Made by a program: the position numbers and the translations under genes
From: Lachnospiraceae bacterium UBA3814
GTDB lineage: Bacteria; Bacillota; Clostridia; Lachnospirales; Lachnospiraceae
NCBI GenBank assembly: GCA_002368575.1
Contig: DFEA01000040.1
Span: 1,300-65,299 of the forward strand
Direction: 5' to 3'
Length of the DNA stretch: 64,000 nt
The notes under the pieces: generated by a model
The model's input: the letters and a program-made list of their open reading frames with translations, nothing else
Told to the model about the DNA's origin: nothing
Databases searched by the model: none
Part shown: one piece after another, positions 1,105 through 48,074 of the stretch
How the letters are laid out: every line of letters starts with the position of its first letter
Numbering within the stretch: the stretch's first letter is position 1

Positions 1105-1887
1105 TTACCGTAATCTGTTTTCGATTGAATTGATCGCATAAAAGCCCTTTGCATTCAGGGAATCCTCCCTGTTATAAAGCATTTCCGTGTCATCCATCTG
1201 CTTAAATATACCGCCGGCCTCCTCTACTATACACTGCATTGCCGCCGTATCCCATTCCATTGTGGGATTGTGTCTGAAGTAGATATCCGCTTCACCCTTT
1301 GCCACAAGGCAGCCCTTTAAGGAGCTTCCGATCCTCAGTATCTTCCTTATATTATACTTTCTTATAAGCTCCTCCATTTCCTCGCAGCCATGGGAGCCGC
1401 TTACCACGGCACTCAGCGCGGAGTGATCCGTATTTTGGGAGACCCTGAGCCTTAACGTTTTCCCGTCGGGCGTCCTCAGATAAGCTCCGTCTCCCTCAGA
1501 AGCATAATAAAGCTCACCGGTCACGGGAACATAGATAACTCCCATCACGCTTCTGTGCTTATTGCTCAGGGCAATGTTTACGGTAAACTGGCCGTTTCTT
1601 TTTATGAATTCCTTTGTTCCGTCCAGAGGATCCACTATAAAGCAGAGGTCGTTTTTGAGCCGCTCCTTATCGTCCTTCTCCTCCTCGGACAGTATCGCAT
1701 GGTCCGGAAAGGCTTTTTTAAGAGCAGCCGTAATCACCATATCAGAGGCTTTATCCGCTCTGGTCAGGGGCGAGCCGTCCTCCTTATACTCTGTTCCGAT
1801 ATCCTTATCCTCATTATATATCTTCAGAATCTCCTCACCGGCCCTTACAGCCGTTTCCATCGCAAGCTTAAGCTCTTCGTTCCACAT
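1105..1887 (-). CDS. cysQ: 3'(2'),5'-bisphosphate nucleotidase (PAP phosphatase), inositol-monophosphatase fold
   Basis: Motifs ILSEEE, FIVDPLDGTKEF and EWDTAA. Start set to ATG at 1887 (MWNEELK), preceded by GGGAGGGA. Last gene of the minus-strand sulfate operon. Confidence 0.8.
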   Translation of the reverse strand: MWNEELKLAMETAVRAGEEILKIYNEDKDIGTEYKEDGSPLTRADKASDMVITAALKKAFPDHAILSEEEKDDKERLKNDLCFIVDPLDGTKEFIKRNGQFTVNIALSNKHRSVMGVIYVPVTGELYYASEGDGAYLRTPDGKTLRLRVSQNTDHSALSAVVSGSHGCEEMEELIRKYNIRKILRIGSSLKGCLVAKGEADIYFRHNPTMEWDTAAMQCIVEEAGGIFKQMDDTEMLYNREDSLNAKGFYAINSIENRLR

Positions 1888-1902
1888 ACATACATCCCTC
1901 CC

Positions 1903-1987
1903 TGCGCTGATCTGCCCGCAGATCATGCGCTTAGGCACAATCCTCAGATTGTGCCGATTCGTTCGGTTTACCGAACGAATCATTTCC
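1903..1987. repeat. Three-hairpin intercistronic element, copy A (H1 1903-1930, H2 1934-1955, H3 1956-1981, tail ATTTCC)
   Basis: Three adjacent stem-loops. Same architecture and shared flanks as 58851-58938. All stem differences between the two copies are compensatory. Confidence 0.7.
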
Positions 1988-1990
1988 TAT

Positions 1991-2022
1991 TCTGCGCCGA
2001 TTTCATTTATGAAATCGTACGC
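1991..2022. repeat. Extra solo copy of hairpin H1 of the same element, abutting the cysA stop codon
   Basis: TCTGCGCCGATTTCA-TTTA-TGAAATCGTACGC is nearly identical to H1 at 58851-58881 (TCTGCGCCGATTTCC-AAA-GGAAATCGTGCGC). Confidence 0.6.
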
Positions 2023-3131
2023 TAACCGGCAAAATACCCGCCGTCGCTATAAAGATATTTTTCAAGCTTCTCCCCTGTCGGATCATCCTTCAGGAGGTAA
2101 CTGTTCTGCATGAGCTCAGTCGTATTATCCTTTACGGCAAACAGCCTGTAGATTATAACGTTCATCTCTTCACCCACTTCGACCGGACGCCTCTCCAGAG
2201 ACCGGTGGGTCACTACCTCCACTCCGTTCACATTAAGCCGAAGCTCCAATGCGCTCCCCTTGAACACGATATCCTTTATCACACCCTTCTGGGAATAGGT
2301 GATAATATCCTTGAAATGAGCATTATCGCTTTTGAAGGCCTCTACAAACTCCGGACGGATGATGGCCCTGTCAAAATCGCCCTTTTCATAGCCGTTAAGC
2401 TTTCCGAAATCCTCCACTATCACAGGCTCCCCTATAAACTGGGAAACAAAGGCCGTTTCCGGCTCCTTGTATATCTTATAGGCCCGGCCCACCTGCTCTA
2501 CTCTGCCCTTATTGGTAACTATGATGCTGTCCGCTACCTCTACCGCCTCATCCTGATCATGAGTAACAAATATGCTGGTGATCCCTACCCTGTGTATCAT
2601 ATCCCTGAGCCACTGCCTGAGATCCTTCCTTACCTTGGCATCCAGAGCCGCAAACGGTTCATCCAGAAGCAGAAGCCCGGGCTCGGGTGCCAGAGCCCTC
2701 GCGAATGCCACTCTCTGTCTCTGACCTCCTGAAAGCTCATTGGGAAATCTTTTCTCGAGCCCCTCAAGCTCTGTAAGCCTGAGCAGCTCATGTACCCTGT
2801 TCTTCACTGCATCCGCGGGAGCCTTCTTTACCGTCAGTCCAAAGGCTATATTATCATAAACCGTCATATAACGGAACAGGGCATAGTTCTGAAAAACAAA
2901 GCCTATGCCCCTCATTGATGCCGGGATGTCATTTACTCTTTTCCCATCGATAAGGATATCTCCGCTGTCTGCCCTTTCAAGACCGGCTATCATCCGAAGT
3001 ATCGTAGTCTTACCGCTTCCGCTTGGTCCCAAAAGCGCGGCAAGCTCCCCCTTTTCCACCGAAAAATTCACATCCTCCGATGCTCTGAAGCTGCCAAAGC
3101 TCTTATTTATATTTCTCATTTCAAGATACAT
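2022..3131 (-). CDS. cysA: Sulfate/thiosulfate ABC transporter ATP-binding protein
   Basis: Walker A GPSGSGKTT, signature LSGGQRQRV, Walker B LLLLDEPF. CysA-like N-terminus and C-terminal extension. GGAGG lies 9 nt upstream of the ATG. Follows two CysT/W-type permeases. Confidence 0.85.
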   Translation of the reverse strand: MYLEMRNINKSFGSFRASEDVNFSVEKGELAALLGPSGSGKTTILRMIAGLERADSGDILIDGKRVNDIPASMRGIGFVFQNYALFRYMTVYDNIAFGLTVKKAPADAVKNRVHELLRLTELEGLEKRFPNELSGGQRQRVAFARALAPEPGLLLLDEPFAALDAKVRKDLRQWLRDMIHRVGITSIFVTHDQDEAVEVADSIIVTNKGRVEQVGRAYKIYKEPETAFVSQFIGEPVIVEDFGKLNGYEKGDFDRAIIRPEFVEAFKSDNAHFKDIITYSQKGVIKDIVFKGSALELRLNVNGVEVVTHRSLERRPVEVGEEMNVIIYRLFAVKDNTTELMQNSYLLKDDPTGEKLEKYLYSDGGYFAG

Positions 3132-3212
3132 ACAACATTCCTCCGCTTATGCGGCTTATACCCGTCGGCTAAGCCTTTACCGGTCCTTTCTGTCCCGTTC
3201 CCGACATGTAAT

Positions 3213-4070
3213 TCACCGCCGTTTCTGCTCCTCCTGTGCCTTCTTCGATCTGTTCTCAAGCACGCAGCGAATCACCAGAAGCACTACCGTAAACAGAACC
3301 AGTATGGATGACACCGCAAAGGCGGCGGTTATGGAATCCGCAGAGCCCGAAAGGTAGAGGGCGTCTATCTCAAGCGGAAGGGTAAAGGTCTCTCCCCTTG
3401 TCTTGGAGAGAGCATTCACCGCTCCGAATTCACCCAGAGCCCTCGCGGTACACAGCACCATTCCGTATAATAAAGCCCATTTCATATGCGGAAAGGTTAT
3501 CCTCCTGAATATGGTAAACATTCCCGCTCCCATTAAAGCCGCCGCATCCTCCTCATCGCTCCCGGCCGCATTAAGGACCGGTATGACCTCTCTTGATACA
3601 AAGGGAAAGGTGACAAAGATCGTGGCAAGAACTACCCCCGGCACCGCGAATACTATCTTTATATCCCAGCCGAAGGCATTATTTACGGCATCCACAAAGG
3701 GAGCCGCCCAGCCCATCCTGCCAAACATCATGATAAAGGCAAGCCCGGCAATGACAGGCGATACGGAAAACGGTATATCTATAAGTGTCTGAAGAAGCTG
3801 CTTGCCCTTAAAGGAAAACCTCGTAAGCAGGATCGAGGCAAAAATACCGAAGACGGTATTTACAATGACCGTTATTACGGTCGCAAGCAGGGTCACCTTT
3901 AACGCGGATATCACGGTTTTCGTGGAGACAGCCTGCAGATAGAATTCAAAGCCCTTTTTCAGGGAATTTATTATCACCATCACAAGCGGCAGAAAAAGCA
4001 TGAGCCCCACAAACAGGGTGCTTACCGTTATCATAAGAAATCTGGTGCTTTTTTTCTTTTTATAACCCAT
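3213..4070 (-). CDS. cysW: Sulfate ABC transporter permease
   Basis: Polytopic permease with EAA-type loop (AAALMGAGMFTIFRRITFP). Second permease in the order sbp-cysT-cysW-cysA. Confidence 0.75.
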   Translation of the reverse strand: MGYKKKKSTRFLMITVSTLFVGLMLFLPLVMVIINSLKKGFEFYLQAVSTKTVISALKVTLLATVITVIVNTVFGIFASILLTRFSFKGKQLLQTLIDIPFSVSPVIAGLAFIMMFGRMGWAAPFVDAVNNAFGWDIKIVFAVPGVVLATIFVTFPFVSREVIPVLNAAGSDEEDAAALMGAGMFTIFRRITFPHMKWALLYGMVLCTARALGEFGAVNALSKTRGETFTLPLEIDALYLSGSADSITAAFAVSSILVLFTVVLLVIRCVLENRSKKAQEEQKRR

Positions 4071-4172
4071 GTGCTTTATCCTTATATATTTCCGTTTTGT
4101 TATGAGCTTCTGTGTAAAGCCTCCGGTGCGGGAAACGCAAAAATAAAAAAAGAACTTTTTCGTTTCCTATAA

Positions 4173-4982
4173 CTACAGTTCATTCGTATGACGGGACTGA
4201 CGTATCTGTACGATGTTCACAAACAACAGTATCAGGAAGGAAATTACCAGCATCAGAAGAGCGACCGCCGTTGCGCCGGCATAATCCATATAGTTAAGCT
4301 TCTGCATTATCACATAGGATACCACCTGTGTCTTTTCCTTTGCGCTGTTTCCCGATATGTATATGACGCTTCCGTACTCCCCTATACCTCTGGCAAAGGC
4401 AAGCCCGAAGCCCGTCAGCATGGCCGGCATTATCTCGGGAAGGATGACCCTTTTAAATGCCGTAAGCTTACCTGCCCCCAGCACATAAGCCGCCTCCTCA
4501 TACTGCTTATCCAGCTTTTCAAGAACGGGCTGCACCGCTCTTACCACAAAGGGGATTCCCACAAATACCAGAGCGACGATGATGCCAAGATGTGTATAAG
4601 CCACATCTATCCCGGCCTTTGACAGCCATTTTCCCGGAAAGCCCGTATTTGAGTACATCTTTGAGAGCGTGATGCCTGCCACCGCCGTAGGCAGGGCAAA
4701 GGGAAGCTCGATAAGCCCGTCTAACAGGAGCTTGAATTTAAACTCATACCGTACAAGTGTCCAGGCAAGAATCACTCCGAAAAAGCAGTTGATCAGCGCA
4801 GCAAAAAGCGAGCACACTATGCTTGTGATAAAGGAATTTCTAACATTGTCCGCAGAAATTATCTCCCAGAACTCCGCAGGGGACAGGGAAAAGCTGTATA
4901 CAAGGATGGATGCAAGCGGTATGAACACTAACAGCGAAAACATGAAGACCGTAACGCCAAAGGTTAATTTAAAGCCCTTCAT
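4173..4982 (-). CDS. cysT: Sulfate ABC transporter permease
   Basis: EAA loop AAYVLGAGKLTAFKRVILP. The ORF-track start at 5006 is TTG. ATG at 4982 has GGAGAAGG upstream, so the start is set there. Confidence 0.75.
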   Translation of the reverse strand: MKGFKLTFGVTVFMFSLLVFIPLASILVYSFSLSPAEFWEIISADNVRNSFITSIVCSLFAALINCFFGVILAWTLVRYEFKFKLLLDGLIELPFALPTAVAGITLSKMYSNTGFPGKWLSKAGIDVAYTHLGIIVALVFVGIPFVVRAVQPVLEKLDKQYEEAAYVLGAGKLTAFKRVILPEIMPAMLTGFGLAFARGIGEYGSVIYISGNSAKEKTQVVSYVIMQKLNYMDYAGATAVALLMLVISFLILLFVNIVQIRQSRHTNEL

Positions 4983-5043
4983 AATCCTTCTCCGTGCCCG
5001 GATCAAAAGTCACATGGCACCTTTGACCCGGGCATCACTATAT

Positions 5044-6135
5044 TTAATTCGAATATATTTCGTCAAATACTCCGCCGTCTTTAAAGTATACGGCATAGGC
5101 TTCGTCCCAGCCGCCGAAGTCGTTAATGGTGCAGAGCTCCATATTAAGGTCGAACTTATCGGCATATTCCTTCAGGACATTCTCATCTGAGGGTCTGTAG
5201 TTATATTCGCCTATGATCCTCTGTGCGTCCTCCGAATAAAGCCACTCAAGATAATCATGGGCAACCTCCGTGGTACCGTTCTTACCGGCGTTTTCATCCA
5301 CAATGGCTACCGAAGGCTGTGCCAGGATGCTTATTGAGGGAGAAACGATCTCGTACTCGCCGGGATATTCCTTTACTGTCGATATCGCCTCGTTTTCCCA
5401 GCTGACAAGCACATCACCCTGCCCGTTCTCAACAAAGGTGGTGGTCGCTCCTCTTGCTCCCGAATCCATTACGACCACGTTTCCGTAAAGCTTACTCATG
5501 AAATCCTTGATCTTTGCTTCATCACCGCCATACTGTCTGTCGGCGTAATACCATGCCGAAAGGAAATTCCAGCAGGCAGCTCCGCTGCTCTTGGGATCGG
5601 GAGATATAACACCCACGCCTTCCTTTATAAGATCATCCCAGTCATGGATATCCTTTTCGTTTCCGGCCCTTACCAGAAACACTATGGTTGAGGTATAGGG
5701 AGAGGAATCCCTTTCAAACTCATCGATCCACCCGCTCTCTATAAGACCTGCCTCCTCGATAAGGGTAATATCATGAGCAAGAGCAAGGGTGACCACATCC
5801 GCGTCGGCTCCTTCGACCACGCTCCTGGCCTGTCCGCCGCTTCCGCCGTGAGACTGTATTATCTCGATCTTCTTTCCGGTCTTCTCCTCATAATGCTTGC
5901 TGAAGGCTTCATTATATGCCGCGTAAAGCTCTCTGGTGGGATCATAGGAAACGTTTGTTATGGTGATGGCCCCGTTCCCATCCCCTTCTCCGGAGGTCTC
6001 GCCCGCCCCGCCGGCCGCGGCGCCGGAAGCCGCACAGCCTCCGAGCAGCAGGCTTATGCATCCTGCAGTAAGGAGCATCGCTATTTTATTTCTATTCTTA
6101 TTTTTATTCATTTTATCCTCCGCATTTCTTCTCAT
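5044..6135 (-). CDS. sbp: Sulfate-binding lipoprotein (Sbp/CysP-type substrate-binding protein)
   Basis: Lipoprotein signal ending LLLGGC, a Gly/Ala-rich linker, then an Sbp-like binding-protein sequence. Leads the transporter block. An alternative ATG at 6111 also has an SD. Confidence 0.75.
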   Translation of the reverse strand: MRRNAEDKMNKNKNRNKIAMLLTAGCISLLLGGCAASGAAAGGAGETSGEGDGNGAITITNVSYDPTRELYAAYNEAFSKHYEEKTGKKIEIIQSHGGSGGQARSVVEGADADVVTLALAHDITLIEEAGLIESGWIDEFERDSSPYTSTIVFLVRAGNEKDIHDWDDLIKEGVGVISPDPKSSGAACWNFLSAWYYADRQYGGDEAKIKDFMSKLYGNVVVMDSGARGATTTFVENGQGDVLVSWENEAISTVKEYPGEYEIVSPSISILAQPSVAIVDENAGKNGTTEVAHDYLEWLYSEDAQRIIGEYNYRPSDENVLKEYADKFDLNMELCTINDFGGWDEAYAVYFKDGGVFDEIYSN

Positions 6136-6220: not shown

Positions 6221-8047
6221 TTAAAGAAACCTCTTCAGCTCTTCCATAAGATACTCTACCGCTTTTTCTACAGAAAGCCTGCTTGTATCGACAGTAATTT
6301 CAGGCTCCGTGGGCGCCTCATACGGACTGCCCACACCCGTGAAGTTCGGGATCTTTCCCTCCCTTGCCTTACGGTAAAGCCCTTTGACATCCCTCTTTTC
6401 GCACTCTTCAATGGGAGTGCTTACATAGATCTCGATAAAGCTGTCGTCCCCTATGATATCCCTGGCATTCTGCCTGTCACTCTGATACGGCGATATAAAT
6501 GAGGTCAGGACTATGAGCCCGGCATCATTCATAAGCTTTGATATCTCCGCGACACGGCGGATGTTCTCGATCCTGTCCTTCTCCTCGAAGCCCAGATTCT
6601 TGTTAATGCCCATCCTGATATTGTCCCCGTCAAGGAGCATGGTATAGTGTCCCATGACGGAAAGCTGTTTTTCTACCTCGTTGGCAAGCGTCGACTTTCC
6701 TGCCCCGGATAGACCGGTGAACCACAGGGTAAGGGGCTTCTGCTTCATTTTCTCCGCCCTGTGCTCCCTTGTAATATCAAGCTTCTGCCAGATAACGTTC
6801 TCGGATCTTCTCAGGGAGTGAAGCACTACTCCGCAGGCCGAGGTCATATTGCTTACCCGGTCGATCAGGATGAACTCACCCTGTGCCCTGTGATCGGAGA
6901 ACCTGTCAAAGACTGCATTTCCGGAAAGAGCTATGTCGCACTCCGCGATCTCGTTTTTCCTCAGCTGCTTTGCGGGAATATGATCTCCCGAATCTATATC
7001 CAGCTTATACTTGATATTCATAACCGTTGCGGGGAGCTTTTGCGTGCCGAGCTTTATCAGAAAGCTCTTGCCCTCCGCAAGATGCTCGTCGTCCATCCAT
7101 AATATGGAGGCCGTAAACATCCGGGACACCGTAAGCTCCGTATCCCTTACAAGCACTGATCCGCGCGATATATCCACCTCGCGGTCAAGAGATATGGTAA
7201 CGGCCTGGCCCATTCCGGCCGAGGCCTCCTTCCTGTCGGTAACAAGTATGGAGGAGACCTTTGCCTTCTGCCCGCTGGGAAGCACCGTAAGCGTATCCCC
7301 CTTTGACACCTGACCGCAGGTTATCTCTCCGGCAAAGCCTCTGAAGGAGCGGTCCGGCCTGCATACTCTCTGCACCGGCATCACAAAGCCCTCCTCAAGG
7401 CCGTTGTCCTCCACATCCACCGTCTCCAGATGTGACAGCAGCGTTTTTCCCTTATACCACCCCATATTCTTAGATAAAGTGGTTATGTTATCGCCTTCGG
7501 TAGCGGAAACGGGTATTATAGTCACCTCTTTAAGCTCCAGGTCTACCGCAAGCTTTCTGATATCCTTTTCAAGCTTCTTGTAAGCCGTTTCATCGTAGCC
7601 GATAAGATCCATCTTGTTTACGGCAAAAACAAAATGTCTTATTCCCATAAGGGCACAGATCCGGCCGTGCCTGATGGTCTGCCTGAGTATCCCCTTTGAC
7701 GCGTCAACAAGTATCACCGCAAGGTCCGCAAAGGAGGCGCCTACCGCCATGTTTCTGGTGTATTCCTCGTGACCGGGGGTATCGGCCACTATGAAGCTTC
7801 TTTCGTTGGTGGTAAAGTACCTGTAGGCCACATCTATGGTAATGCCCTGCTCTCTTTCGGCCATAAGCCCGTCCAGAAGGAGGGAATAATCGATATCTCC
7901 CCCTCTGCTCCCCACCTTGCTGTCAAGCTTTAAGGCCTGCTCCTGGTCCGCGAATAAAAGCTTTGAATCATAGAGCATATGACCGATCAGGGTGGATTTT
8001 CCGTCGTCTACACTTCCGCAGGTAATAAATTTCAATAATCCCTTCAT
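6221..8047 (-). CDS. cysNC: Bifunctional sulfate adenylyltransferase subunit 1 / adenylylsulfate (APS) kinase
   Basis: N-terminal GTPase motifs GSVDDGKSTLIG, DTPGHEEY, NKMD (CysN). C-terminal APS-kinase P-loop FTGLSGAGKSTLA (CysC). Start set to ATG at 8047, 1 nt after the cysD stop. Confidence 0.9.
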   Translation of the reverse strand: MKGLLKFITCGSVDDGKSTLIGHMLYDSKLLFADQEQALKLDSKVGSRGGDIDYSLLLDGLMAEREQGITIDVAYRYFTTNERSFIVADTPGHEEYTRNMAVGASFADLAVILVDASKGILRQTIRHGRICALMGIRHFVFAVNKMDLIGYDETAYKKLEKDIRKLAVDLELKEVTIIPVSATEGDNITTLSKNMGWYKGKTLLSHLETVDVEDNGLEEGFVMPVQRVCRPDRSFRGFAGEITCGQVSKGDTLTVLPSGQKAKVSSILVTDRKEASAGMGQAVTISLDREVDISRGSVLVRDTELTVSRMFTASILWMDDEHLAEGKSFLIKLGTQKLPATVMNIKYKLDIDSGDHIPAKQLRKNEIAECDIALSGNAVFDRFSDHRAQGEFILIDRVSNMTSACGVVLHSLRRSENVIWQKLDITREHRAEKMKQKPLTLWFTGLSGAGKSTLANEVEKQLSVMGHYTMLLDGDNIRMGINKNLGFEEKDRIENIRRVAEISKLMNDAGLIVLTSFISPYQSDRQNARDIIGDDSFIEIYVSTPIEECEKRDVKGLYRKAREGKIPNFTGVGSPYEAPTEPEITVDTSRLSVEKAVEYLMEELKRFL

Positions 8048-8048
8048 A

Positions 8049-9227
8049 TTAAAAATACCCCTCTCGTTTTCTCTTCTCCATGCTTGCCGCTCCGCCGTCC
8101 TTATCGATAACACGGCTGGTCCTCTCGGACTCGGTGGCGCTCAGAGTCTCCTCTATTATCTCGTCAAGAGTCGTCGCCTCAGATTCTACCCCTCCGGAAA
8201 GCGGATAACACCCAAGGGTCCTGAACCTCACCATTTTCATTTCGGGCTTTTCACCGGGCCTGAGCCTCATCCTGTCGTCATCGACCATTATAAGGTTGCC
8301 GTCCCGTTCGACCACCGGCCTCTTTGCCGCAAAATACAGAGGGACTATTGGAATGTTCTCCCTTTTTATATACTGCCATATATCGCTCTCGGTCCAGTTG
8401 GATATGGGGAACACGCGGATGCTTTCTCCCTTTTTGATCTCGGTATTATAGCATTTCCACATCTCCGGCCGCTGGTTCTTGGGGTCCCAGGCCTGAGAGG
8501 AATCCCTGAAGGAGAATATCCTTTCCTTGGCGCGGCTCTTTTCCTCATCCCTTCGCCCTCCGCCGAAGGCAGCGGTAAAGCCGTATTTCGTAAGCGCCTG
8601 CTTAAGGGCCTGAGTCTTCATTATGTCGGTATAGGCCGCCCCGTGATCAAAGGGGTTTATTCCCTGCTTTAGCCCCTCCTCATTTATATATTCGAGCATT
8701 TCTATTCCGAGCTCTTTTGCGCGTCTGTCACGGAATTCGATCATTTCCCTGAATTTCCAGGTGGTATTTACATGAAGGAAAGGAAAAGGAGGCTTTTCCG
8801 GATAAAAGGCCTTCATGGCAAGATGGAGCATTACCGAGCTGTCCTTGCCTATGGAATACAGCATGACCGGCTTTTCACACTCTGCCGCCACCTCCCGCAT
8901 TATATATATCGCCTCGGCCTCAAGGACATCCAGATGCGACAGTCTCATGCCTGAGAAGCCCTCGTTCTTTTCCCCGGCCTCGGCTATCCTGTCCTCATTC
9001 TGAAGATCCAGAAAATAGCTTTCTGATACGTTGAAATACCTGCCGAGCCTTACGGATGAGTCGGCACTGATCTTGCGGCGGCCGTGCAGGATATCCTGTA
9101 TACGTGAAACGGGTACATTGAGCTCTTTTGCGAGCTTATATGCCGACAGGTTCTGAGGCTCCATAAATTTTTCCTTAAGGACCTTCCCTGCCTTATTTTC
9201 GTTTTTTGAAGTGATAGATGCGCTCAT
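8049..9227 (-). CDS. cysD: Sulfate adenylyltransferase subunit 2 with an in-frame N-terminal HigA/XRE-type helix-turn-helix module (~93 aa)
   Basis: Residues after [28 protein letters not shown] form a full CysD (PAPS-reductase-fold PP-loop). Upstream, in the same frame with no stop, lies [49 protein letters not shown], a HigA-antitoxin-like HTH. ATG at 9227 is preceded by AAGGGAG. The canonical CysD ATG at 8948 also has GAGGG 10 nt upstream. Confidence 0.8.
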
Positions 9228-9231
9228 GAAA

Positions 9232-9258
9232 ATACTCCCTTCTTTTGAAAGGGAGTAT
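9232..9258. promoter_or_regulatory. Perfect 10-bp inverted repeat ATACTCCCTT-N7-AAGGGAGTAT overlapping the -10 box and the SD of HTH-cysD (candidate operator)
   Basis: Arms at 9232-9241 and 9249-9258 are exact reverse complements. One arm contains the -10 hexamer and the other contains the ribosome-binding site. Confidence 0.5.
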
Positions 9259-9282
9259 ACCTGTTTTTGCATTATATGTCAA
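9254..9282 (-). promoter_or_regulatory. Sigma-A-type promoter of the sulfate operon (TTGACA-17 nt-TATACT)
   Basis: On the minus strand, TTGACA is at 9282-9277 and TATACT at 9259-9254, with a 17-nt spacer. It lies about 30 nt upstream of the ATG at 9227. Confidence 0.65.
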
Positions 9283-10972: not shown

Positions 10973-10996
10973 AAAAATATCTCCGTACAAAACTCT

Positions 10997-11194: not shown

Positions 11195-11363
11195 ACATAT
11201 CCTCCCTGATAAGGGAAAGCATATGATAACTGGCATCGGTTTCATGACCAGTTCCTTTCTTTTACGTAGGTTCATCTACGATTCCTTATTTCATAAATAA
11301 AGAAAAGAGCGAGAATAATTATTTATAACGGTCGCCAAAAATTCAGAATAAAAAAAATATGTC

Positions 11364-13064
11364 TCAGTACCCGTCCCTGTAATGTACCCTGCACCTCTTT
11401 CTGAAAAAGGATATCCCATACCTGCCGAGGTTTCCGTAGCCCTCCTCTAAAAGTGCATCCGCATAGCTGAGCTCATCGATCTGTTTTATCGCTTCCTCTG
11501 CCGCCTCATCCATCATCTCCATGGTGACCGGCTTCTTTCCCTCCTGCTTTACTGCCTTCAGCTCAATGATAAAGGCCTTCTCAAACACGTCCCCTGTCCT
11601 CAGCAGGATATCGCTCCTTCCATACCCGGATTCGCGGTTGCTCTTTATGGCGTATTCGCTGCTGCCCGAAAGAATCCCCACCATAAAGCCGTGATAGAAA
11701 TTTTCATAGGAATCCATATAGCTGATGGATGGACCCAAAAGCCTGTTGATCTCCCGCTCAAAGCCTTCGGCGTCGCCGTTCTTCATGGCCGCAAACAAAG
11801 GGGCTCTGTCGGATTTCTGTACGATCTCCTGCTTAAACCAGCTCAGTATCTTCTGTGAGTAAATATACCTCGTCTCCCGGTTTGGGATCACCATAACGGC
11901 GTATATCCTGTCATTCTCCACCCGCTGAGAAATGATCTTCAGATAACCTGTGAATAGCATGAAATTCCACAGATTATCCTGCTCCTTGTATATCTCCCCA
12001 TAGGTGATATCCTCATGCACCGGTTTTTCGATGCTCCCTCCCTCTATGAGCCTTTCTATCTCTCCCTTCGTTTCGCTGTCCGCTCTTTCAATGAGATCCC
12101 TTACTATCCCGTTTGAACTGGTATTCGCCCAGTAGGACTGTGGAAAGTAGTCACGGTTCGAACCTGTATGATCCCGCAGATACATGATCGTGCTCCAGGG
12201 ATTGTAAACATTGCTGTTTCCGAAAAGATATCCGTTATACCAGCTCCTTACCTCCTCATATTTATCCGAAAGCTCATAATAATCAAGGGCTGCCTTTACC
12301 TCCTCATCGGTAAAGCCGAAATATTCCCCGTAAACCGGAGTAAGGATCGAATTGATGTTCAGGTTATTCAAGCCTGTAAAAATGGACTCCTTTGATATTC
12401 TAAGGCACCCGGTAATGACGGCAAATTCCAGCGCGTTATTTGTTTTCAGAGCCCCTTCGAAAAGACTGCGTATAAAGCTTACCATATGTTCATAATATCC
12501 GTCGTAAAAGGAGCTTTCCAGAGGTACGTCATACTCATCGATCAGGATTATGGTTTTCTTTCCGGTTACTGTCTTAATGCATTCGCAGAGGAATTTCAGG
12601 CTGTCTGTATACTGATCCGGTTCTATTTTCCTGTCCCTGTACTCCAGGAAGGCTGAAGACTCCTCTTCATTTAACGAATTGCTTTCCAGAACAAAGCTGT
12701 GACGCTTAAATTCCCTCGCAAGTTCACTCCTTAAGGCCTTAAACGCCGATTCCTCATTTCCGGTCTTTGCCGACTTAAGGGTCAGAAAGATCACGGGATA
12801 TTTCCCCATCAACGAGGTATACTTCTCTCCCGAATCCATGATCTTAAGCCCTGAGAAGAGCGAGGGATCAGAGCCCTCCTCAAAAAAACAGCGCAGCATA
12901 TCAAGGGTAAGGGTTTTTCCGAACCGTCTGGGTCTTGTGAAGAGATTTACCTCGCCCTTTTTATCGATCAATTCCTTAATGAATAAGGTCTTGTCCACAT
13001 AGTAGTAATCATTTGATATGATCTTTTCAAAAAACTCAACTCCTATAGGTAGCGGTTTATGCAT
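11364..13064 (-). CDS. AAA-ATPase-like / PD-(D/E)XK nuclease-superfamily protein (DUF1703-type), second paralog
   Basis: MHKPLPIGVEFFEKIISNDYYYVDKTLFIKEL..TRPRRFGKTL N-terminus. C-terminal GYGRSDILLR..AFIIELK nuclease-like block. GGAGGG SD. Confidence 0.7.
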   Translation of the reverse strand: MHKPLPIGVEFFEKIISNDYYYVDKTLFIKELIDKKGEVNLFTRPRRFGKTLTLDMLRCFFEEGSDPSLFSGLKIMDSGEKYTSLMGKYPVIFLTLKSAKTGNEESAFKALRSELAREFKRHSFVLESNSLNEEESSAFLEYRDRKIEPDQYTDSLKFLCECIKTVTGKKTIILIDEYDVPLESSFYDGYYEHMVSFIRSLFEGALKTNNALEFAVITGCLRISKESIFTGLNNLNINSILTPVYGEYFGFTDEEVKAALDYYELSDKYEEVRSWYNGYLFGNSNVYNPWSTIMYLRDHTGSNRDYFPQSYWANTSSNGIVRDLIERADSETKGEIERLIEGGSIEKPVHEDITYGEIYKEQDNLWNFMLFTGYLKIISQRVENDRIYAVMVIPNRETRYIYSQKILSWFKQEIVQKSDRAPLFAAMKNGDAEGFEREINRLLGPSISYMDSYENFYHGFMVGILSGSSEYAIKSNRESGYGRSDILLRTGDVFEKAFIIELKAVKQEGKKPVTMEMMDEAAEEAIKQIDELSYADALLEEGYGNLGRYGISFFRKRCRVHYRDGY

Positions 13065-13164: not shown

Positions 13165-14313
13165 TTATGCCGTCCCTCCGACAATGTGTTGTATAAGCTT
13201 ATCAAAAACAGCTTTGCATTTATCATATATCTTAAGTCTTAAATACACTGTCCGTTTTAATTTGGTGATCTCTATTTCCTGCTCCAAAAGCATATACCCT
13301 AGCATCAAAACTGTATCCTCGTACAGATCCGGATTATCCTTATTCCACACCGGCGCTTCCTTGGGAGCGGGAAACAGCTCTTTTCTGTCATCCTTCAGAT
13401 ACTCTTTGATGATCTTCTGGTTTCCATCCTCATAGAGCTTCCTTATCATTGCCCGTTCCTGTGCATTCATGAAGGTCTCACGGGAGGATTTGCGCAGGTT
13501 CCTGGAACATGCTTCTGTGGCCAGTTGTCCGTAAATAAGATCATTATGGGTAATATTTCCCACACCTTCAAGCTGATTCAGTATCCTCTTGATCTCAATA
13601 TAATTAGGACTTATAGAGGTATTCTTTTCTTCGTTCGGAATGACATATCCCTCAGAGGGGTCCAATCCGATAGCCTGCAGAAAATCATTCTCTGCCTTTC
13701 CGCCCATAAATTCTTTTCTGTCGTAGATCCTGACAATTATATTTTCTTTGCCTACGATATCAGACAAATGGCGGAGGCCCTCGTAATAATCTGTTTTAGG
13801 CCATTGCTCCGGATGACTGATAAATTCACCCCATTCGGGGCGATTCTTTCCACTCTTGCATTGTTTGATGCTTTGCCTGTATATTGATTCTATCCAATCC
13901 TCCTGTGGCCTGAGATAGACAATAAGCTTAAGCAATGCGTTATTATCATCTGCAAAAGCTTTAATACGCTTAAGATTCTTATAACCTGTCTTCTGAAAGA
14001 AACCCCACAGCGATTCATCGGTAAGAATTACCGTGGAGAAGTGTTTAAGCTGTTTTTCCACCTGCTTCAGACCAAATTCAAGTATTCTATCCCTTATTTT
14101 AATCGGCACCTGTCCAATAATGGCAAGTCGGCGATGACCGCCTATAAACATACCGTTTCGGTTTCTGTCGTAATGTTCATAACATATTATAGGTAGACGT
14201 TTAAAACAGTAGCCTTTCTTCGCAAGAAATGACCTGTTAAGATAAAGGAAATTCTGAATTGATGAAGTGCCTGTCTTTGTGGTCCCTATATGAAGATATA
14301 TTACTTTATCCAT
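13165..14313 (-). CDS. Sulfotransferase-like protein (paralog 1), uncharacterised family
   Basis: N-terminal IYLHIGTTKTGTSSIQ resembles the 5'-PSB loop K-x-G-T-[ST]. LIVYLRPQEDWIESIYRQ resembles the 3'-PB strand-R...S motif of PAPS sulfotransferases. Start set to ATG at 14313 (GAAAGGA 6 nt upstream). Confidence 0.5.
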   Translation of the reverse strand: MDKVIYLHIGTTKTGTSSIQNFLYLNRSFLAKKGYCFKRLPIICYEHYDRNRNGMFIGGHRRLAIIGQVPIKIRDRILEFGLKQVEKQLKHFSTVILTDESLWGFFQKTGYKNLKRIKAFADDNNALLKLIVYLRPQEDWIESIYRQSIKQCKSGKNRPEWGEFISHPEQWPKTDYYEGLRHLSDIVGKENIIVRIYDRKEFMGGKAENDFLQAIGLDPSEGYVIPNEEKNTSISPNYIEIKRILNQLEGVGNITHNDLIYGQLATEACSRNLRKSSRETFMNAQERAMIRKLYEDGNQKIIKEYLKDDRKELFPAPKEAPVWNKDNPDLYEDTVLMLGYMLLEQEIEITKLKRTVYLRLKIYDKCKAVFDKLIQHIVGGTA

Positions 14314-14405
14314 TGACATTCCTTTCAGGTTCTCCAGAGTATCCTAAGAGAACAGCCCGGAGAGCAAGTCTTATTGTTTAAGCTCCATCAGATCAGGAGG
14401 GAATC

Positions 14406-15545
14406 TTATTCATTAGAACCGATAATAGCCTGAATGGCTCTGGTCATAAAAGTACGGCATTTATCATAAAGCTTCAATCTTAAATAAACCGTCTGTTTTA
14501 ACCTGCTGATCTCTTTCTCATGATTAAGTATCATATATCCGAGCATCAGGACGGTATCCTCAAAGAGATGAGGGTCATCTTTGGTCCAGACGGGTTTTTC
14601 TTTAGGTTCCGGGAATAAATGATCCCCTTCATGTACATACTCCGACAGAACCTTTTGATTCCCCTCTTTATAACGGTTCCTTAACATAGATTTCTGTTCG
14701 GGATTTATGAAAACCTCGCTGCCTGATCTGCTTAAGCTTGCGGAACAGTCCGTAGCAGCCGACTGCGCATGGAAGAGTTCTTTTTCTGTAATATTACCTA
14801 TGCCGTCAAGCTTGTTAAGGATTCTCTTTATTTCTATATAATTAGCGTTCAGGGAGGTATTTTTTTCCTCCTCACCTATCTTATATTCATCGGAGGGCTC
14901 CAGTCCGATGGCCTGCAGGAAGTCATTTTCGACCTTCCCTCCGATAAATCTTTTTCTGTCATATATCCTGACGATCATATTCTCTTTACCTACGATCTCC
15001 GACATACGGCAGAGCCCGCTGTAATAATCCGCGCTGGGCCATTTATCCGGATCACTGATATAGGTCTCCCAATCAGAGCAGTCCTTTCCCTCACGGTATT
15101 TTTTTATGTTCTGCTTGTAGCTCGACTCCAGCCAGTCCTCCTGCGGCCTGAAATAAACTACCAGCTTAAGCACAGCATGATTCCGGTCTGCAAAGTTCTT
15201 AATGATCTTCAGGGTCCTGCAGTCAGTCCTGAGAAAATAATTCCAAAGTCCCTCGTCCGTAAGGATCACGGCGTGACAATGCTCAAGCTGATCGCTGACA
15301 CGCTTTAATCCTGCCGCTATCAATCGTTTCTGCTGCCGGGCTGAAGGCTTTCCAAACCAGCGCAGCTTACGGACGTTTAAATACATGGCGTTTCGATTCT
15401 TAAGGGATCGGTCATAAGGCACAGGATCTCTCTTATAGCTGTAGCCCTTCTTTGCAAGCACCTCACGGTTCAGATAAAGAAAGCTCTGGATAGAGGAGGT
15501 CCCTGTCTTGGTAGTTCCGATATGAAGATATATTACCTTGTCCAT
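14406..15545 (-). CDS. Sulfotransferase-like protein (paralog 2)
   Basis: Close paralog of 13165-14313, with identical MDKVIYLHIGTTKTGTSSIQ and LVVYFRPQEDWLESSYKQ. Start set to ATG at 15545 (AAAGAGGA upstream). Confidence 0.5.
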   Translation of the reverse strand: MDKVIYLHIGTTKTGTSSIQSFLYLNREVLAKKGYSYKRDPVPYDRSLKNRNAMYLNVRKLRWFGKPSARQQKRLIAAGLKRVSDQLEHCHAVILTDEGLWNYFLRTDCRTLKIIKNFADRNHAVLKLVVYFRPQEDWLESSYKQNIKKYREGKDCSDWETYISDPDKWPSADYYSGLCRMSEIVGKENMIVRIYDRKRFIGGKVENDFLQAIGLEPSDEYKIGEEEKNTSLNANYIEIKRILNKLDGIGNITEKELFHAQSAATDCSASLSRSGSEVFINPEQKSMLRNRYKEGNQKVLSEYVHEGDHLFPEPKEKPVWTKDDPHLFEDTVLMLGYMILNHEKEISRLKQTVYLRLKLYDKCRTFMTRAIQAIIGSNE

Positions 15546-15653
15546 TTTCCTCTTTTCTGACAAACTCCACACCATATATCAAAACACAGTCATTAATTGT
15601 TCCGGGCATCTCAAATGCCGGAGAACTGCTATATCCTTTAATTACGACAGTCC

Positions 15654-16838
15654 CTACCTGTAAAGGCGATTCAGGATCTTCTTTTTTATCCGGTACAGCT
15701 TTAATTTAATGGAGTGGAAGGAGAGAGAGTTTTCCTTCAGTGACTGTATTTCCTCATGAAGCTGTTTGGTTACATAGCCGAAATATAAGATCATTTCCTC
15801 CTGCATGGCTAAGAGGTCATACTCCCATTTTTCTCCAGAGCTGTCCCCCGACAGGAAAAGCTCTTCCCTGTTTAAATACTCTCCGGCTATACGGCGGTTC
15901 TCGTCCTTATATTCCTCCATCAGCTTACGCCGTTCTTCATCCGAAAAGTAAGAGAGCTTCCTCTCCTCCTTACTGAGACCCGAGCAGTCGATGCTGGCCT
16001 TTTCAAAGAACTTTTTGGTGCTGACCTTAAGAGGCTCATGAGCCTCTGTCAGACGGTTCAGGATCCGCATGATCTCAGTCTGATTGTAGGTCGTGCTTTC
16101 GTTTGAAAGCCCTCCGGGCAGCTCATAATGCCTGATATCTGTGATCCCTATGGCATTCATGAAGACCGAAAAGATAGATCCGCCGTTTTTAGCCCATATG
16201 CCGGGCTCATAAGGTATTACCTCAATATTATCCTTTCCGAAGATACGGGAAAAGGCTGTGAGCATTTTCTCATAGTTGGTGGGGATAATATCCGAATGCT
16301 TATTGTCCGCCAGGAAGGAGTCCCAGCTCTCGGTAGGGAAATGATCCTTTACATCCTGTCTGTAAAAGGAATCAAGAAAGACATCCTGTTTACGCAGAAA
16401 AATGATGACCTTGACATTGAAATCATTTTTTTCGGAGAATTCCTTAACTCTCTTCAGGAAATCCCATCTTGACCAGTCACGGCTGATATGCTCATCTGTC
16501 AGGATCACGTTGGGCTTTTCGTCCAGCCATTTTTTAATTATCCTGAGTCCCTTGTTAAGCCTTCTGACATTCTCCTCATGAGGGTCTCCGGAATTTCCAT
16601 GCAGAAAAATACCATTCCTCAGCTTAGGATATGTACGATAGTTTTCAACAACGACATATTCGCCTTTGCTGTTTTGTATCCTGGTACTACGATCATAATC
16701 ATATAGCTTCGGCAGTCTGAAAATATACCCGTCCTTATATAACCTGGCCTTATTCAGATCAAGAAAATCCTGAATCGCGCTGGTTCCTGTTTTACGAACA
16801 CCAATGTGAATATATAGTGTACGCTTTTGGTCAGTCAT
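15654..16838 (-). CDS. Sulfotransferase-like protein (paralog 3, divergent)
   Basis: LYIHIGVRKTGTSAIQ and VIIFLRKQDVFLDSFYRQ keep both motifs. The rest is much more diverged. Confidence 0.45.
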   Translation of the reverse strand: MTDQKRTLYIHIGVRKTGTSAIQDFLDLNKARLYKDGYIFRLPKLYDYDRSTRIQNSKGEYVVVENYRTYPKLRNGIFLHGNSGDPHEENVRRLNKGLRIIKKWLDEKPNVILTDEHISRDWSRWDFLKRVKEFSEKNDFNVKVIIFLRKQDVFLDSFYRQDVKDHFPTESWDSFLADNKHSDIIPTNYEKMLTAFSRIFGKDNIEVIPYEPGIWAKNGGSIFSVFMNAIGITDIRHYELPGGLSNESTTYNQTEIMRILNRLTEAHEPLKVSTKKFFEKASIDCSGLSKEERKLSYFSDEERRKLMEEYKDENRRIAGEYLNREELFLSGDSSGEKWEYDLLAMQEEMILYFGYVTKQLHEEIQSLKENSLSFHSIKLKLYRIKKKILNRLYR

Positions 16839-16902: not shown

Positions 16903-16931
16903 ATGATACTCAAAGAAAAGATACTTGTCAA
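16903..16931 (-). promoter_or_regulatory. Sigma-A-type promoter (TTGACA-17 nt-TATCAT) for the sulfotransferase-like triplet
   Basis: On the minus strand, TTGACA is at 16931-16926 and TATCAT at 16908-16903, with a 17-nt spacer. It lies about 65 nt upstream of the ATG at 16838. Confidence 0.6.
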
Positions 16932-17166: not shown

Positions 17167-17339
17167 AATATGATGTCAGAGTCTAAAGTCACACGGCACT
17201 TTTGACCCTGACATCATATTGTGGACTGCCCGACAAAAGGCTGCGAAGCAGCCTCTGGCATACGAGATATGGTGGTCAGGCTTGCCTGAAACCACCATTT
17301 GTCGTATGCCGGAGGAACCCAAAGGGCTTTTGTCGGGCA
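17167..17339 (+). other. Highly structured leader/intergenic element: 13-bp perfect hairpin (17167-17220) plus a ~113-nt nested rod (17227-17339)
   Basis: - Hairpin: AATATGATGTCAG / CTGACATCATATT.
- Rod P1: TGCCCGACAAAAG / CTTTTGTCGGGCA (13 bp).
- Side hairpin: GCTGC-GAA-GCAGC.
- Rod P2: GGCATACGA / TCGTATGCC (9 bp).
- Rod P3: ATGGTGGT / ACCACCAT (8 bp).
- Rod P4: CAGG-CTTG-CCTG.
- The element ends 47 nt before the licD ATG. Confidence 0.4.
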
Positions 17340-17385
17340 ACTCATATTATCAGAAGTATAGATAAAAGAGGCCATTGACAGATAC

Positions 17386-18195
17386 ATGAAGAAACTATCG
17401 TGCAAGGAAATTCAGAAAAAAAGCCTGCAGTTGCTTGTTTTCTTTAATGAATATACTCAAAAAAACAATTTAACGTATTATTTGTCAGGGGGTACTCTTT
17501 TAGGTGCAGTTCGTCATAAAGGTTTTATACCCTGGGACGATGATGTGGATATAATGATGCCCAGAAAGGATTATGAGAGGCTCATACAGGAATTTGAGGA
17601 AACGGAACAGTATTGTGTTTCTTCGTATGAAAATGATCCGGAATTTGAGAATCGATGGGCACGTATCTGGGATAAATATACTGAAAGAGATTTTTTCCTT
17701 TATGATACTAAACGGCTCGGTGTTTATCTGGATATTTTTCCTTTGGATGGTTATCCTGACAGCAGGCTGTTATCTGTCATCCATGATATTCATTTAAGGA
17801 TACTTGTGGAATTGTGGAACACATATATGATACCCGGACCGGGGAATGATCTTCATTTTAAGAGGATACGAAAAGTGATCAGGCGGCTGTTTTATAATGA
17901 ACCGCGAAAAATGAGTAAAAAGATCAATGAAACGGCCATGAAATATGATTATGAAAAATGTAATTATGTCGGGCCGTCTATCTGTATGCATTATATGTTT
18001 AAAGAACGCAACAGAAAGGAAATATACAAACCGATATTTCTACCTTTTGAAGGAGGCATGTTCCCTGCCCCGGCTGGCTATGATATATACCTTAAAAAAC
18101 TGTATGGTGATTATATGCAATTGCCTCCCGAAGAAAAAAGAGTGTCAAATCATGCCTTTGTCATATGGGAGAAAGAACCGGTAAAAGAGGAATAA
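17386..18195 (+). CDS. licD: LicD-family phosphotransferase (paralog 1)
   Basis: LSGGTLLGAVRHKGFIPWDDDVDIMMPRKDYERL and C-terminal LYGDYMQLPPEEKR are LicD-family hallmarks. Confidence 0.8.
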   Translation: MKKLSCKEIQKKSLQLLVFFNEYTQKNNLTYYLSGGTLLGAVRHKGFIPWDDDVDIMMPRKDYERLIQEFEETEQYCVSSYENDPEFENRWARIWDKYTERDFFLYDTKRLGVYLDIFPLDGYPDSRLLSVIHDIHLRILVELWNTYMIPGPGNDLHFKRIRKVIRRLFYNEPRKMSKKINETAMKYDYEKCNYVGPSICMHYMFKERNRKEIYKPIFLPFEGGMFPAPAGYDIYLKKLYGDYMQLPPEEKRVSNHAFVIWEKEPVKEE

Positions 18196-18197
18196 CA

Positions 18198-23674: not shown

Positions 23675-23994
23675 AAAAATTAAATTTCCGTTTGTAGTAA
23701 AAATGATGGTTGAAGATACTGCTTCAGAGATCTTTAAATGAATATATAGTGTTCAATATATATTATCATATAAAGACTTTACAGCATCTATTATGCTTTA
23801 CTCATGATATTCAAAAATGAAGCTCTTGTCAAACAAAATATGATTATCTCTATAGTTTGACAGTAAAGTATTACAGAAAGCTGGATAACCTGTTGAACCG
23901 CAAATCTTGAATTGGAAGAGGCGACGTTCACCTTCTCTCTGCCTTTTTCCGCGGTAAAATATTCTTTTATATCGCATTTTTCCGCGGAAATATG

Positions 23995-24023: not shown

Positions 24024-24046
24024 TTTCATTATCAAGGAGGTTATAT

Positions 24047-48051: not shown

Positions 48052-48074
48052 TTTACCCCTCTCTGCGCTCACGC

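Follow-up and report, generated by a model that had tools for sequence, protein, structure and literature searches.

Sulfotransferases that use 3'-phosphoadenosine 5'-phosphosulfate (PAPS) as the donor share a recognizable signature, a PKxGT[TS] loop combined with an R-x7-S motif, and in the heparan-sulfate sulfotransferases the catalytic base is a glutamate and not a histidine (Glu642 in NDST1; Glu90 in 3-OST-1). Sulfated wall polymers are, to our knowledge, essentially undescribed in Gram-positive gut bacteria. Here, we describe a tandem triplet of genes from the gut bacterium Lachnospiraceae bacterium UBA3814 whose products, referred to as P1, P2, and P3 (paralogs 1, 2, and 3), are very likely PAPS-dependent sulfotransferases. 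The triplet is located on contig DFEA01000040.1 in a stretch of 64,000 nt (positions 1,300 to 65,299), which as a whole is called the window in the following.

PAPS-dependent sulfotransferases of gut commensals have been described from Bacteroides thetaiotaomicron (BtSULT) and Eubacterium ramulus (ErSULT); both are Sulfotransfer_3 proteins that resemble Stf1 of Mycobacterium tuberculosis, their acceptors are sterols or hydroxy fatty acids, and homologs of ErSULT are found mainly in Clostridia (PMC13449962). The proteins described here belong to a family for which there is no curated model.

Three tandem genes encode proteins with sulfotransferase-type motifs

The three genes, each with a candidate 5'-phosphosulfate-binding (PSB) loop, are as follows.

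15654..16838, minus strand: P3, sulfotransferase-like, 394 amino acids; PSB loop G13-S20 (16779-16802), E116, R149...S157
14406..15575, minus strand: P2, 389 amino acids as the longest open reading frame; PSB loop 15495-15518
13165..14319, minus strand: P1, 384 amino acids; PSB loop G12-S19 (14263-14286), E102 (14014-14016), R137...S145 (13885-13911)

An earlier reading of this DNA, made from its letters alone and referred to here as the sequence-only reading, had noted two motifs in each of the three co-oriented open reading frames (ORFs), and these are present exactly as it described them. All three proteins begin with [IL]Y[LI]HIG-x-x-KTGTS-[SA]-IQ (IYLHIGTTKTGTSSIQ in two, LYIHIGVRKTGTSAIQ in one), and 122-133 residues past the Lys of this motif each of them carries a strand followed by R-x-Q-[ED]-x3-[ED]-S-x-Y-[RK]-Q. 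Neither the ORFs nor the motifs are chance occurrences, since the profile of the family to which they belong matched them at E-values from 1e-103 to 1e-115 (P1, 2e-112; P2, 5e-115; P3, 7e-103). The public records HAG69491.1 and HAG69492.1 are named only 'hypothetical protein [Lachnospiraceae bacterium]'.

P1 and P2 are indeed closely related, with 57% sequence identity. The statement that P3 keeps only the motifs was too strong: P1 and P3 are 33% identical, and P3 shares about 30-33% of its residues with either paralog along the whole length. The recent duplication that had been proposed on these grounds is contradicted by orthologous triplets in other assemblies (loci L088 and L089), in which the same order is kept with identities of 89% to P3, 80% to P2, and 59% to P1; all three copies therefore predate those lineages.

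The motif residues are near-invariant among diverse relatives

Conservation was counted in 135 diverse relatives, with residues numbered as in P3. Near-invariant in the first motif are G13, K16 (134/135), T17 (135/135), G/A18 (135/135), T/S19, T/S20, and Q23 (T/S of the loop, 135/135), and further along the chain E116 (135/135), R149 (135/135), Q151, D152, S157 (131/135), and Q161. The spacing from Arg to Ser is eight in every one of the 135 proteins, the same as in the LRNPVDRAFS segment of the sulfotransferase structure 3rnl. A Walker A motif (GxxxxGK[ST]) was found in none of the 135 relatives; the Lys of KTGT[ST] precedes the position of the Walker-A Lys by three residues, as it does in the PKxGT[TS] loops of sulfotransferases. 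Both motif assignments of the sequence-only reading, a phosphosulfate-binding loop that is not a Walker A and a strand-Arg...Ser 3'-phosphate motif, are thus borne out by the conservation pattern. P1, P2, and P3 all keep the complete set of family-invariant residues (G, K, T, T/S, Q, E, R, S, and Q).

Predicted structures and sequence links to curated sulfotransferases

The AlphaFold models of P1 and P3 are confident, with per-residue confidence (pLDDT) of 89.1 and 90.7 and predicted template-modeling scores (pTM) of 0.84 and 0.87, respectively. In these models, KTGTS lies on a strand-loop-helix element (in P1, between strand 5-12 and helix 18-27) and the second-motif Arg ends a strand (128-136 in P1), with the Ser placed eight residues later on the helix that comes next (139-152). 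The Glu that is invariant in 135/135 relatives ends the next core strand, directly behind strand 96-101 in the P1 model; its match to the catalytic His/Glu of solved enzymes is one of topology only. About 150 C-terminal residues are helical, and the last helix alone spans about 50 residues. As modeled, the fold is a P-loop-like alpha/beta fold that is compatible with a sulfotransferase. The top Foldseek match of P1 was 3rnl (E 2.6e-4), and NDST1, 3-OST-1/3/5, and TPST1 were retrieved at a probability of about 1.0.

Sequence comparisons point to the same superfamily from a considerable distance. When P1-P3 were searched singly with phmmer, none had a match in the PDB, and the best PDB match of the family profile was again 3rnl (E 0.14, lowered to 0.012 by a deeper profile), and the two motifs were in register in the alignment. 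Weak Pfam matches of 120 family members were most often to Sulfotransfer_1 (19 members) and Sulfotransfer_3 (10 members); nearly all other families among the 25 most often matched are coiled-coil families, a noise attributable to the long terminal helix, and these 25 include no nucleotide-kinase family. Domains isolated from multi-domain relatives carry the same motifs and match the family hidden Markov model (HMM) at E 1e-24 to 1e-49, and individually they exceed Pfam cut-offs, namely those of Sulfotransfer_4 (PF17784; 30.5 and 27 bits vs. 22.8) and of Sulfotransfer_1 (PF00685; 23.8 and 22.9 bits vs. 22). A phmmer search of one of these bridging domains against the PDB returned nothing. Profile-profile alignment with hhalign against a canonical Sulfotransfer_1 clade of 62 sequences gave E 0.006 with the Arg and Ser of the 3'-phosphate-binding motif in register; against one canonical sulfotransferase sequence only the PSB loop was aligned (probability 4.6%), and the control against an APS-kinase profile (APS, adenosine 5'-phosphosulfate) gave E 0.48 and no meaningful alignment. 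As judged from their sequences, the window proteins are best placed in the wider superfamily and not in Pfam Sulfotransfer_1 or Sulfotransfer_3/4, since their scores are under the gathering thresholds.

A PAPS-supply operon lies next to the triplet

A feature of the locus that had no part in the argument of the sequence-only reading is a complete PAPS module on the strand of the triplet, about 4 kb downstream of it. From the triplet onward, the gene order is two AAA-ATPase_like/PD-(D/E)XK genes, CysD, CysN/CysC, the sulfate importer, and CysQ.

11364-13064, minus strand: AAA-ATPase_like plus PD-(D/E)XK_9 gene, between the triplet and the cys operon
9305-10990, minus strand: a second gene of the same type, likewise between the triplet and the cys operon
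8049..9272, minus strand: CysD, sulfate adenylyltransferase small subunit (513.6 bits vs. cut-off 413)
6221..8113, minus strand: bifunctional CysN/CysC (ATP sulfurylase large subunit plus APS kinase), which makes PAPS (843.6 bits vs. cut-off 715)
2022..6135, minus strand: sulfate ABC importer, four genes, all above their NCBIfam cut-offs and assigned by NCBIfam as in the next four lines
5044-6135, minus strand: substrate-binding protein of the sulfate importer
4173-5006, minus strand: CysT
3213-4070, minus strand: CysW-like permease
2022-3131, minus strand: ATPase of the sulfate importer
1105..1983, minus strand: CysQ, 3'(2'),5'-bisphosphate nucleotidase, which removes 3'-phosphoadenosine 5'-phosphate (PAP) (TIGR01331, 247.3 bits vs. 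cut-off 228.8)

Going by these profile matches, the cys genes together are predicted to form a complete supply line for PAPS together with the means to remove PAP.

The link to sulfate activation recurs elsewhere. In a survey of 80 species-level loci (mean length, 17.5 kb), CysD, CysN, or CysC was encoded within 10 kb of a family gene in 46 loci, and all three were present in 34; by an estimate that was not backed by measurement, a single cys locus would fall within 10 kb by chance in about 0.7% of cases in a 3-Mb genome. The usual order is cysD-cysNC-family on one strand, and the orders cysC-family and family-cysD-cysN also occur. Counted as distinct arrangements were these three, that of the window itself, locus L003 (cysD-cysNC-family-chromate-transporter-like), locus L028 (EamA transporter-cysD-cysNC-family-SsuA/NMT1-like ABC importer), and the capsule loci of Campylobacter coli. 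In the latter, which represent a different phylum, two homologs flank a cysD-cysN-CitMHS transporter-cysC cluster beside KpsC/KpsS, and one of these loci also contains cysQ.

The CysD ORF of the window has an unusual N-terminus. Residues 24-100 match the helix-turn-helix (HTH) of the HigA-family antitoxins (64.5 bits vs. cut-off 47.7), and this HigA-like HTH runs in frame, with no stop codon, into the canonical CysD start at about residue 109; the CysD proteins of related loci comprise 297 amino acids. The ORF could represent a true fusion, a HigA gene that lacks its stop codon, or a CysD gene with an internal start.

The neighboring genes suggest a surface glycopolymer as the acceptor

On its other side, the triplet is adjoined by genes that are candidates for the synthesis of an acceptor polymer.

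17386-18195, plus strand: LicD, divergently upstream of the triplet
18165-18914, plus strand: IspD/TarI-like cytidylyltransferase
18931-19980, plus strand: NAD-dependent epimerase/reductase
20521-21312, plus strand: second LicD
21379-22389, minus strand: Stealth
22820-23674, minus strand: third LicD

Beyond these genes, the window is taken up by a single large locus for surface glycans, which encodes NeuB-family proteins, cytidylyltransferases, ABC exporters, and many glycosyltransferases. Stealth and IspD-like genes also accompany the orthologous triplet of L088/L089, which lies directly downstream of them on the same strand inside a LicD/epimerase/ABC-exporter/TPP-enzyme/GT2 cluster (TPP, thiamine pyrophosphate; GT2, glycosyltransferase family 2) that is syntenic with the window. 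Other relatives are found in a TagF-like/Stealth/ABC-2 cluster (L006), in a rhamnose/MBOAT/ABC-2 cluster beside a canonical Sulfotransfer_2 gene (L005), and in an ABC-2-exported glycan cluster with an adjoining canonical sulfotransferase gene (L004). Single-copy relatives in cysDNC operons are without glycan neighbors.

The conservation of the triplet together with Stealth, IspD-like, and LicD genes favors a surface glycopolymer as its acceptor, and, from the gene neighborhood, we consider the chance that this is the polymer made by the adjacent genes to be even or slightly better. The wall-polymer acceptor put forward in the sequence-only reading is accordingly plausible for the triplet, but it does not extend to the single-copy relatives: with their cysDNC operons free of glycan genes, polysaccharides need not be the acceptors throughout the family.

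The cytidylyltransferase at 18165-18914 scores 168.9 against the IspD equivalog (cut-off 181.3) and 152.8 against ribitol-5-phosphate cytidylyltransferase (cut-off 166); it is below both cut-offs, and its substrate may be either an alditol phosphate or a sugar phosphate. With its counterpart in L088, encoded immediately upstream of the orthologous triplet, it shares 88% identity. Between 24000 and 57000, the window further contains NeuB-family genes (27142-28020 and 44569-45570), a KdsA/DAHP-synthase-like gene (39367-40185), genes for a CMP-type cytidylyltransferase, a UDP-GlcNAc 2-epimerase, a UDP-sugar dehydrogenase, an AMP-binding enzyme, and a TPP enzyme, two ABC exporters, and at least five glycosyltransferases. 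The ORFs 31972-34143 (723 amino acids), 36917-38026 (369 amino acids), and 46714-48072 (452 amino acids) had no match in Pfam.

The family is large and often organized in tandem

The impression of a rare family, left by a word-indexed search that returned 61 relatives, was overturned by an exhaustive profile search. This search retrieved 35,712 cluster representatives at E <= 1e-3, 22,359 at E <= 1e-10, and 6,645 at E <= 1e-30. In species-representative genomes the family is encoded in at least 509 stretches, and the best 80 of these come almost entirely from Lachnospiraceae or other Clostridia, cultured isolates among them; this bears on the phylogenetic distribution that the sequence-only reading had proposed to examine. 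No model in the copies of Pfam and NCBIfam that were searched covers the sulfotransferase-like domain. By its sequence, the family is very probably an unannotated, divergent, and numerically large branch of the known PAPS sulfotransferase superfamily, with a putative acceptor suggested by gene context.

Tandem organization is a recurrent property. Two to five family-matching ORFs are present in 21 of the 80 loci, a few of them being fragments of one gene, and in L004, an O-antigen-like cluster unrelated to the window, a triplet has arisen independently. In some relatives (P0062-P0067, P0081, P0083, P0132, P0142, and P0198), the domain is repeated in tandem, two to four times, within one polypeptide of up to 1676 amino acids, and in one relative a GT2 domain, a GT4 domain, and two family domains are fused. 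Arrays of up to five genes are found in L052 and L085, and the multi-domain sulfotransferase-like concatenates mirror these tandem gene arrays.

Identity of the family with DUF8374 (PF28160) was considered and rejected: PF28160 covers a C-terminal module of Campylobacter capsule-locus proteins that is absent from the window proteins. A 572-amino-acid 'DUF8374' capsule-locus protein has no match to the family HMM and has just the C-terminal 120 or so residues in common with sulfotransferase-like proteins of 549 and 502 amino acids, C-terminally truncated homologs do not match PF28160, and precomputed PF28160 matches include none on the window proteins or their close relatives. The module, with its LSYKLGQA motifs, is 82-85% identical among the proteins that share it (encoded at 3575-5293 and 10001-11650 of L001 and at 3083-4591 of L002) and may be a common membrane- or machinery-targeting module. 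In the literature, we found nothing on DUF8374, on sulfation of Campylobacter capsules by these genes, or on a relationship of Cj1421/Cj1422 to sulfotransferases.

Proposed reaction and alternative explanations

The sulfotransferase assignment, already made in the sequence-only reading, draws support from the motifs, the predicted fold, the match to 3rnl, the related domains that pass Pfam cut-offs, and the context of PAPS genes. If P1-P3 work as solved sulfotransferases do, the 5'-phosphosulfate of PAPS would be held by the strand-loop-helix HIGxxK-T-G-T-[ST] and its 3'-phosphate by the strand Arg and the helix Ser of R-x7-S. As the general base, the invariant Glu that ends the central strand (E102 in P1; E116 in P3) would deprotonate the hydroxyl of the acceptor, to which the sulfuryl group would be transferred in-line. 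PAPS would come from the adjacent sulfate importer, CysD, and CysN/CysC, and the by-product PAP would be cleared by CysQ. A phosphate-containing surface glycopolymer produced by the neighboring LicD, Stealth, and IspD-like enzymes is the most likely acceptor; it would be sulfated on the cytoplasmic face, ahead of its export, and the three paralogs may serve different positions or residues. Taken as a whole, the proposal that P1-P3 are cytoplasmic PAPS-dependent O-sulfotransferases of a divergent family with a glycopolymer as the acceptor seems to us reasonably probable.

Several observations weigh against the assignment or limit its support. P3 scores only 14.8 bits against Sulfotransfer_1 (cut-off 22) and P1 and P2 yield no match, so that all three fall below every Pfam sulfotransferase threshold, and an NCBIfam search of P1-P3 was without a match as well. 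The hhalign probability against the canonical Sulfotransfer_1 clade is just 6%, which is not proof, and sulfotransferase structures were matched at modest TM-scores, 0.33-0.40 when normalized to the query and 0.47-0.56 when normalized to the target length. A probable terminator follows the triplet, two AAA-ATPase/PD-(D/E)XK genes come between it and the cys operon, and the orthologous triplet of L088/L089 is without a cys gene within 10 kb. The 80 surveyed loci stem mostly from related Lachnospiraceae, and their 58% co-occurrence with cys genes does not amount to 80 independent events; given this relatedness, it is the number of distinct arrangements that provides independent evidence.

The fold search, too, speaks less clearly than the motifs, and it bears on the idea that P1-P3 are P-loop kinases or NTPases which phosphorylate a sugar, an alditol, or a polymer with ATP and resemble sulfotransferases through a shared fold. 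The top matches of P3 were PFKFB3 kinase domains (E 1.8e-5), marginally above 3rnl in fourth place (E 3.5e-5), although the TM-score of 3rnl is better than that of PFKFB3 and the best among the top-ranked matches; adenylate, gluconate, and polynucleotide kinases, zeta toxins, and GPN GTPases also appear in the lists of P1 and P3. The structure prediction called for by the sequence-only reading hence yielded a P-loop-like alpha/beta fold with the motifs placed as in sulfotransferases, but with these models the fold search alone cannot tell a sulfotransferase from a P-loop kinase, because the latter score about as well. Furthermore, a conserved 'S-D-E' with an acidic pair (D/E-E) past the central strand resembles Walker B and is by itself no argument against an NTPase, and the neighboring polymer genes make phosphate-rich polymers. 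A kinase is nevertheless highly improbable when measured against the missing Walker A motif and the shifted position of the Lys, the essentially invariant Arg-x7-Ser motif, the prevalence of Sulfotransfer_1 and Sulfotransfer_3 over nucleotide-kinase families among the Pfam matches, the empty APS-kinase control, and the recurrent proximity to genes of PAPS synthesis, for which a kinase would have no use. Motifs that bind 5' and 3' phosphates would tolerate another base or leaving group, and a sulfotransferase-like fold could therefore serve a different 3'-phosphonucleotide donor and move a group other than sulfate, as with CDP-phosphoramidate 3'-phosphate in the formation of the O-methyl phosphoramidate of Campylobacter capsules. 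There, the CysC-like kinase Cj1415 makes a PAPS-like donor and Cj1421/Cj1422 are needed for the transfer (PMC11800397), and among named proteins the closest homologs of P1-P3 come from Campylobacter capsule loci. However, the neighbors of the triplet are true sulfate-activation genes (CysD, CysN/CysC, the sulfate-specific ABC importer, and CysQ) that pass NCBIfam equivalog or subfamily cut-offs, and where homologs occur in Campylobacter loci, they are accompanied by CysD and CysN instead of the glutamine kinase/amidohydrolase set, so that we give such a donor very little credence.

Two further alternatives accept PAPS as the donor. The acceptor might be a small molecule or a lipid (a hydroxy fatty acid, a sterol, or another metabolite), with the glycan genes being incidental; most single-copy relatives are encoded in compact cysD-cysNC-family operons without glycan genes (e.g., L028 and L003), and ErSULT, another sulfotransferase, sulfonates hydroxy fatty acids in gut Clostridia (PMC13449962). 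For the triplet we regard this as unlikely, if worth keeping in mind, since the triplet has been kept intact alongside Stealth, IspD-like, LicD, and epimerase genes and follows them directly and co-oriented in L088, and since relatives are fused to GT2/GT4 glycosyltransferases or reside in ABC-2/TagF-like glycopolymer clusters and in Campylobacter capsule loci by KpsC/KpsS. It is also conceivable that one or more of the paralogs are catalytically dead and function as PAPS- or polymer-binding scaffolds or as regulators of a single working enzyme. Degenerate copies often occur in tandem paralog arrays, P1 evolves faster than its neighbors (59% identity to its positional counterpart vs. 80-89% for P2 and P3), and the long C-terminal helix of all three could mediate hetero-oligomers; with every family-invariant residue retained in all three proteins, we consider dead paralogs improbable. 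We continue to favor three working PAPS-dependent sulfotransferases that modify a surface glycopolymer.

Implications for sulfation in gut Firmicutes

The chemistry proposed here is conventional; what has been under-appreciated is the distribution of a large unannotated family within a known superfamily. A 2026 census by Pfam Sulfotransfer_1-5 counted 924 Firmicutes entries (PMC13449962), and the family is invisible to it as this census rests on just these Pfam models. If our interpretation is correct, the sulfation capacity of gut Firmicutes is far above that recognized, the conserved cysD-cysNC-family operon offers a direct handle for finding sulfated products, and the locus predicts a sulfated, phosphate-containing surface polymer that bears on host interaction, phage adsorption, and immune recognition. 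More speculatively, and somewhat less likely than not, the family, with sequence clusters in the tens of thousands, might be the main, so far invisible sulfotransferase clade of gut Firmicutes, usually tied to its own cysDNC genes, and in bacteria such as the present one its arrays of position-specific paralogs might multiply-sulfate a teichoic-acid-like or capsular polymer to provide commensal Lachnospiraceae with a densely sulfated coat that resembles the sulfation of host mucin and glycosaminoglycans.

Transcription signals and further features of the window

The triplet is framed by the following putative transcription signals.

16903..16931, minus strand: sigma-70-like promoter TTGACA-17-TATCAT, 11/12 matches, best site of the region, about 65 nt before the P3 start codon
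13119..13150, minus strand: probable intrinsic terminator, a bulged GC-rich hairpin (13150-13128) followed by the U-rich tract UUUUGUGUU, 15 nt past the P1 stop codon

The promoter is found where the sequence-only reading had placed it (16931..16903). Of the terminator that it had proposed, the bulged GC hairpin and the U-tract are present and fold at -21 kcal/mol, but the element was spotted by eye and by folding, its z-score is a modest -2.1, and a simple terminator scan of the minus strand detected none. Judged by where ribosome-binding sites (RBS) are located and by how long the representatives in databases are, the start is probably Met3 (14313) in P1 and Met11 (15545), behind the RBS AAGAGGAAA, in P2.

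A short hairpin, CCGGCAT-ttgag-ATGCCCGG, is located in the gap of 108 nt between P3 and P2 (15546-15653, minus strand); it is not followed by a U-tract and may be an element of mRNA processing or stability and not a terminator. Between the triplet and the divergently oriented LicD gene, an imperfect palindrome of 131 nt (17215-17345) folds at -75.5 kcal/mol (z -9.2), a value reached by none of 200 shuffled sequences. It has no Rfam match, as is true of the whole window, and its terminal 14-mer has no other copy in the window or in 89 fetched loci.

The AAA-ATPase_like plus PD-(D/E)XK_9 gene type that separates the triplet from the cys operon also adjoins the orthologous triplet of L088/L089 and the relative in L006. 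Small ORF fragments with a P-loop-like GARQVGKTW sequence are located between the two genes of this type in the window (10902-11275, minus strand), and a DUF4143/AAA_14 gene is found at 23912-25357. The AAA-ATPase_like/PD-(D/E)XK genes look like mobile or selfish insertions in glycan loci.

Comparison with known systems

The nearest solved structure is 3rnl, a structural-genomics entry for a sulfotransferase of Alicyclobacillus acidocaldarius whose acceptor is unknown. Its AKCGTSS aligns with xKTGT[ST] and its LRNPVDRAFS with LRRQDxxxxS of the family, at a TM-score of 0.47-0.49 by target length. In contrast to these likenesses, the identity is just 12-13%, the sequence match alone is not statistically significant, and 3rnl is shorter, as it is without the helical C-terminal half of about 150 residues and its 50-residue terminal helix. 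BtSULT and ErSULT represent a different branch; Stf1 is missing from the 50 best fold matches listed for P1 or P3.

Proteins from the capsule loci of Campylobacter coli, C. lari, and C. jejuni (about 500-550 amino acids; annotated as 'hypothetical' or 'coiled-coil domain-containing', PF28160) are homologous to the window proteins over their N-terminal 370 or so residues, where they have the same motifs (phmmer E 1e-13 to 1e-16; family HMM E about 1e-50), and their genes adjoin cysD, cysN, cysC, and cysQ. They differ from the window proteins by a longer coiled coil and by a C-terminal module of about 120 residues with repeated LSYKLGQA motifs. The P-loop kinases, represented by the 6-phosphofructo-2-kinase domain of PFKFB, adenylate kinase, and APS kinase, have the three-layer alpha/beta core in common with the family and reach Foldseek E-values comparable to those of sulfotransferases. 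Unlike them, the family has no Walker A motif (0/135) and no similarity to the APS-kinase profile, and it possesses the Arg-x7-Ser motif and the link to PAPS synthesis.

The heparan-sulfate sulfotransferases (the NDST1 domain in 1nst and 8ccy; 3-OST-1/3/5; Sulfotransfer_1) were matched at a Foldseek probability of about 1.0, with TM-scores of 0.49-0.56 by target length. They are eukaryotic enzymes of the Golgi lumen with 11-16% identity to the window proteins, which are under the PF00685 threshold. Yet they share with the family the K-x-G-T-[TS] loop and the strand-Arg...Ser motif, and their acceptor is a carbohydrate polymer. By analogy, it is these enzymes that appear to be the nearest mechanistic counterparts of P1, P2, and P3.

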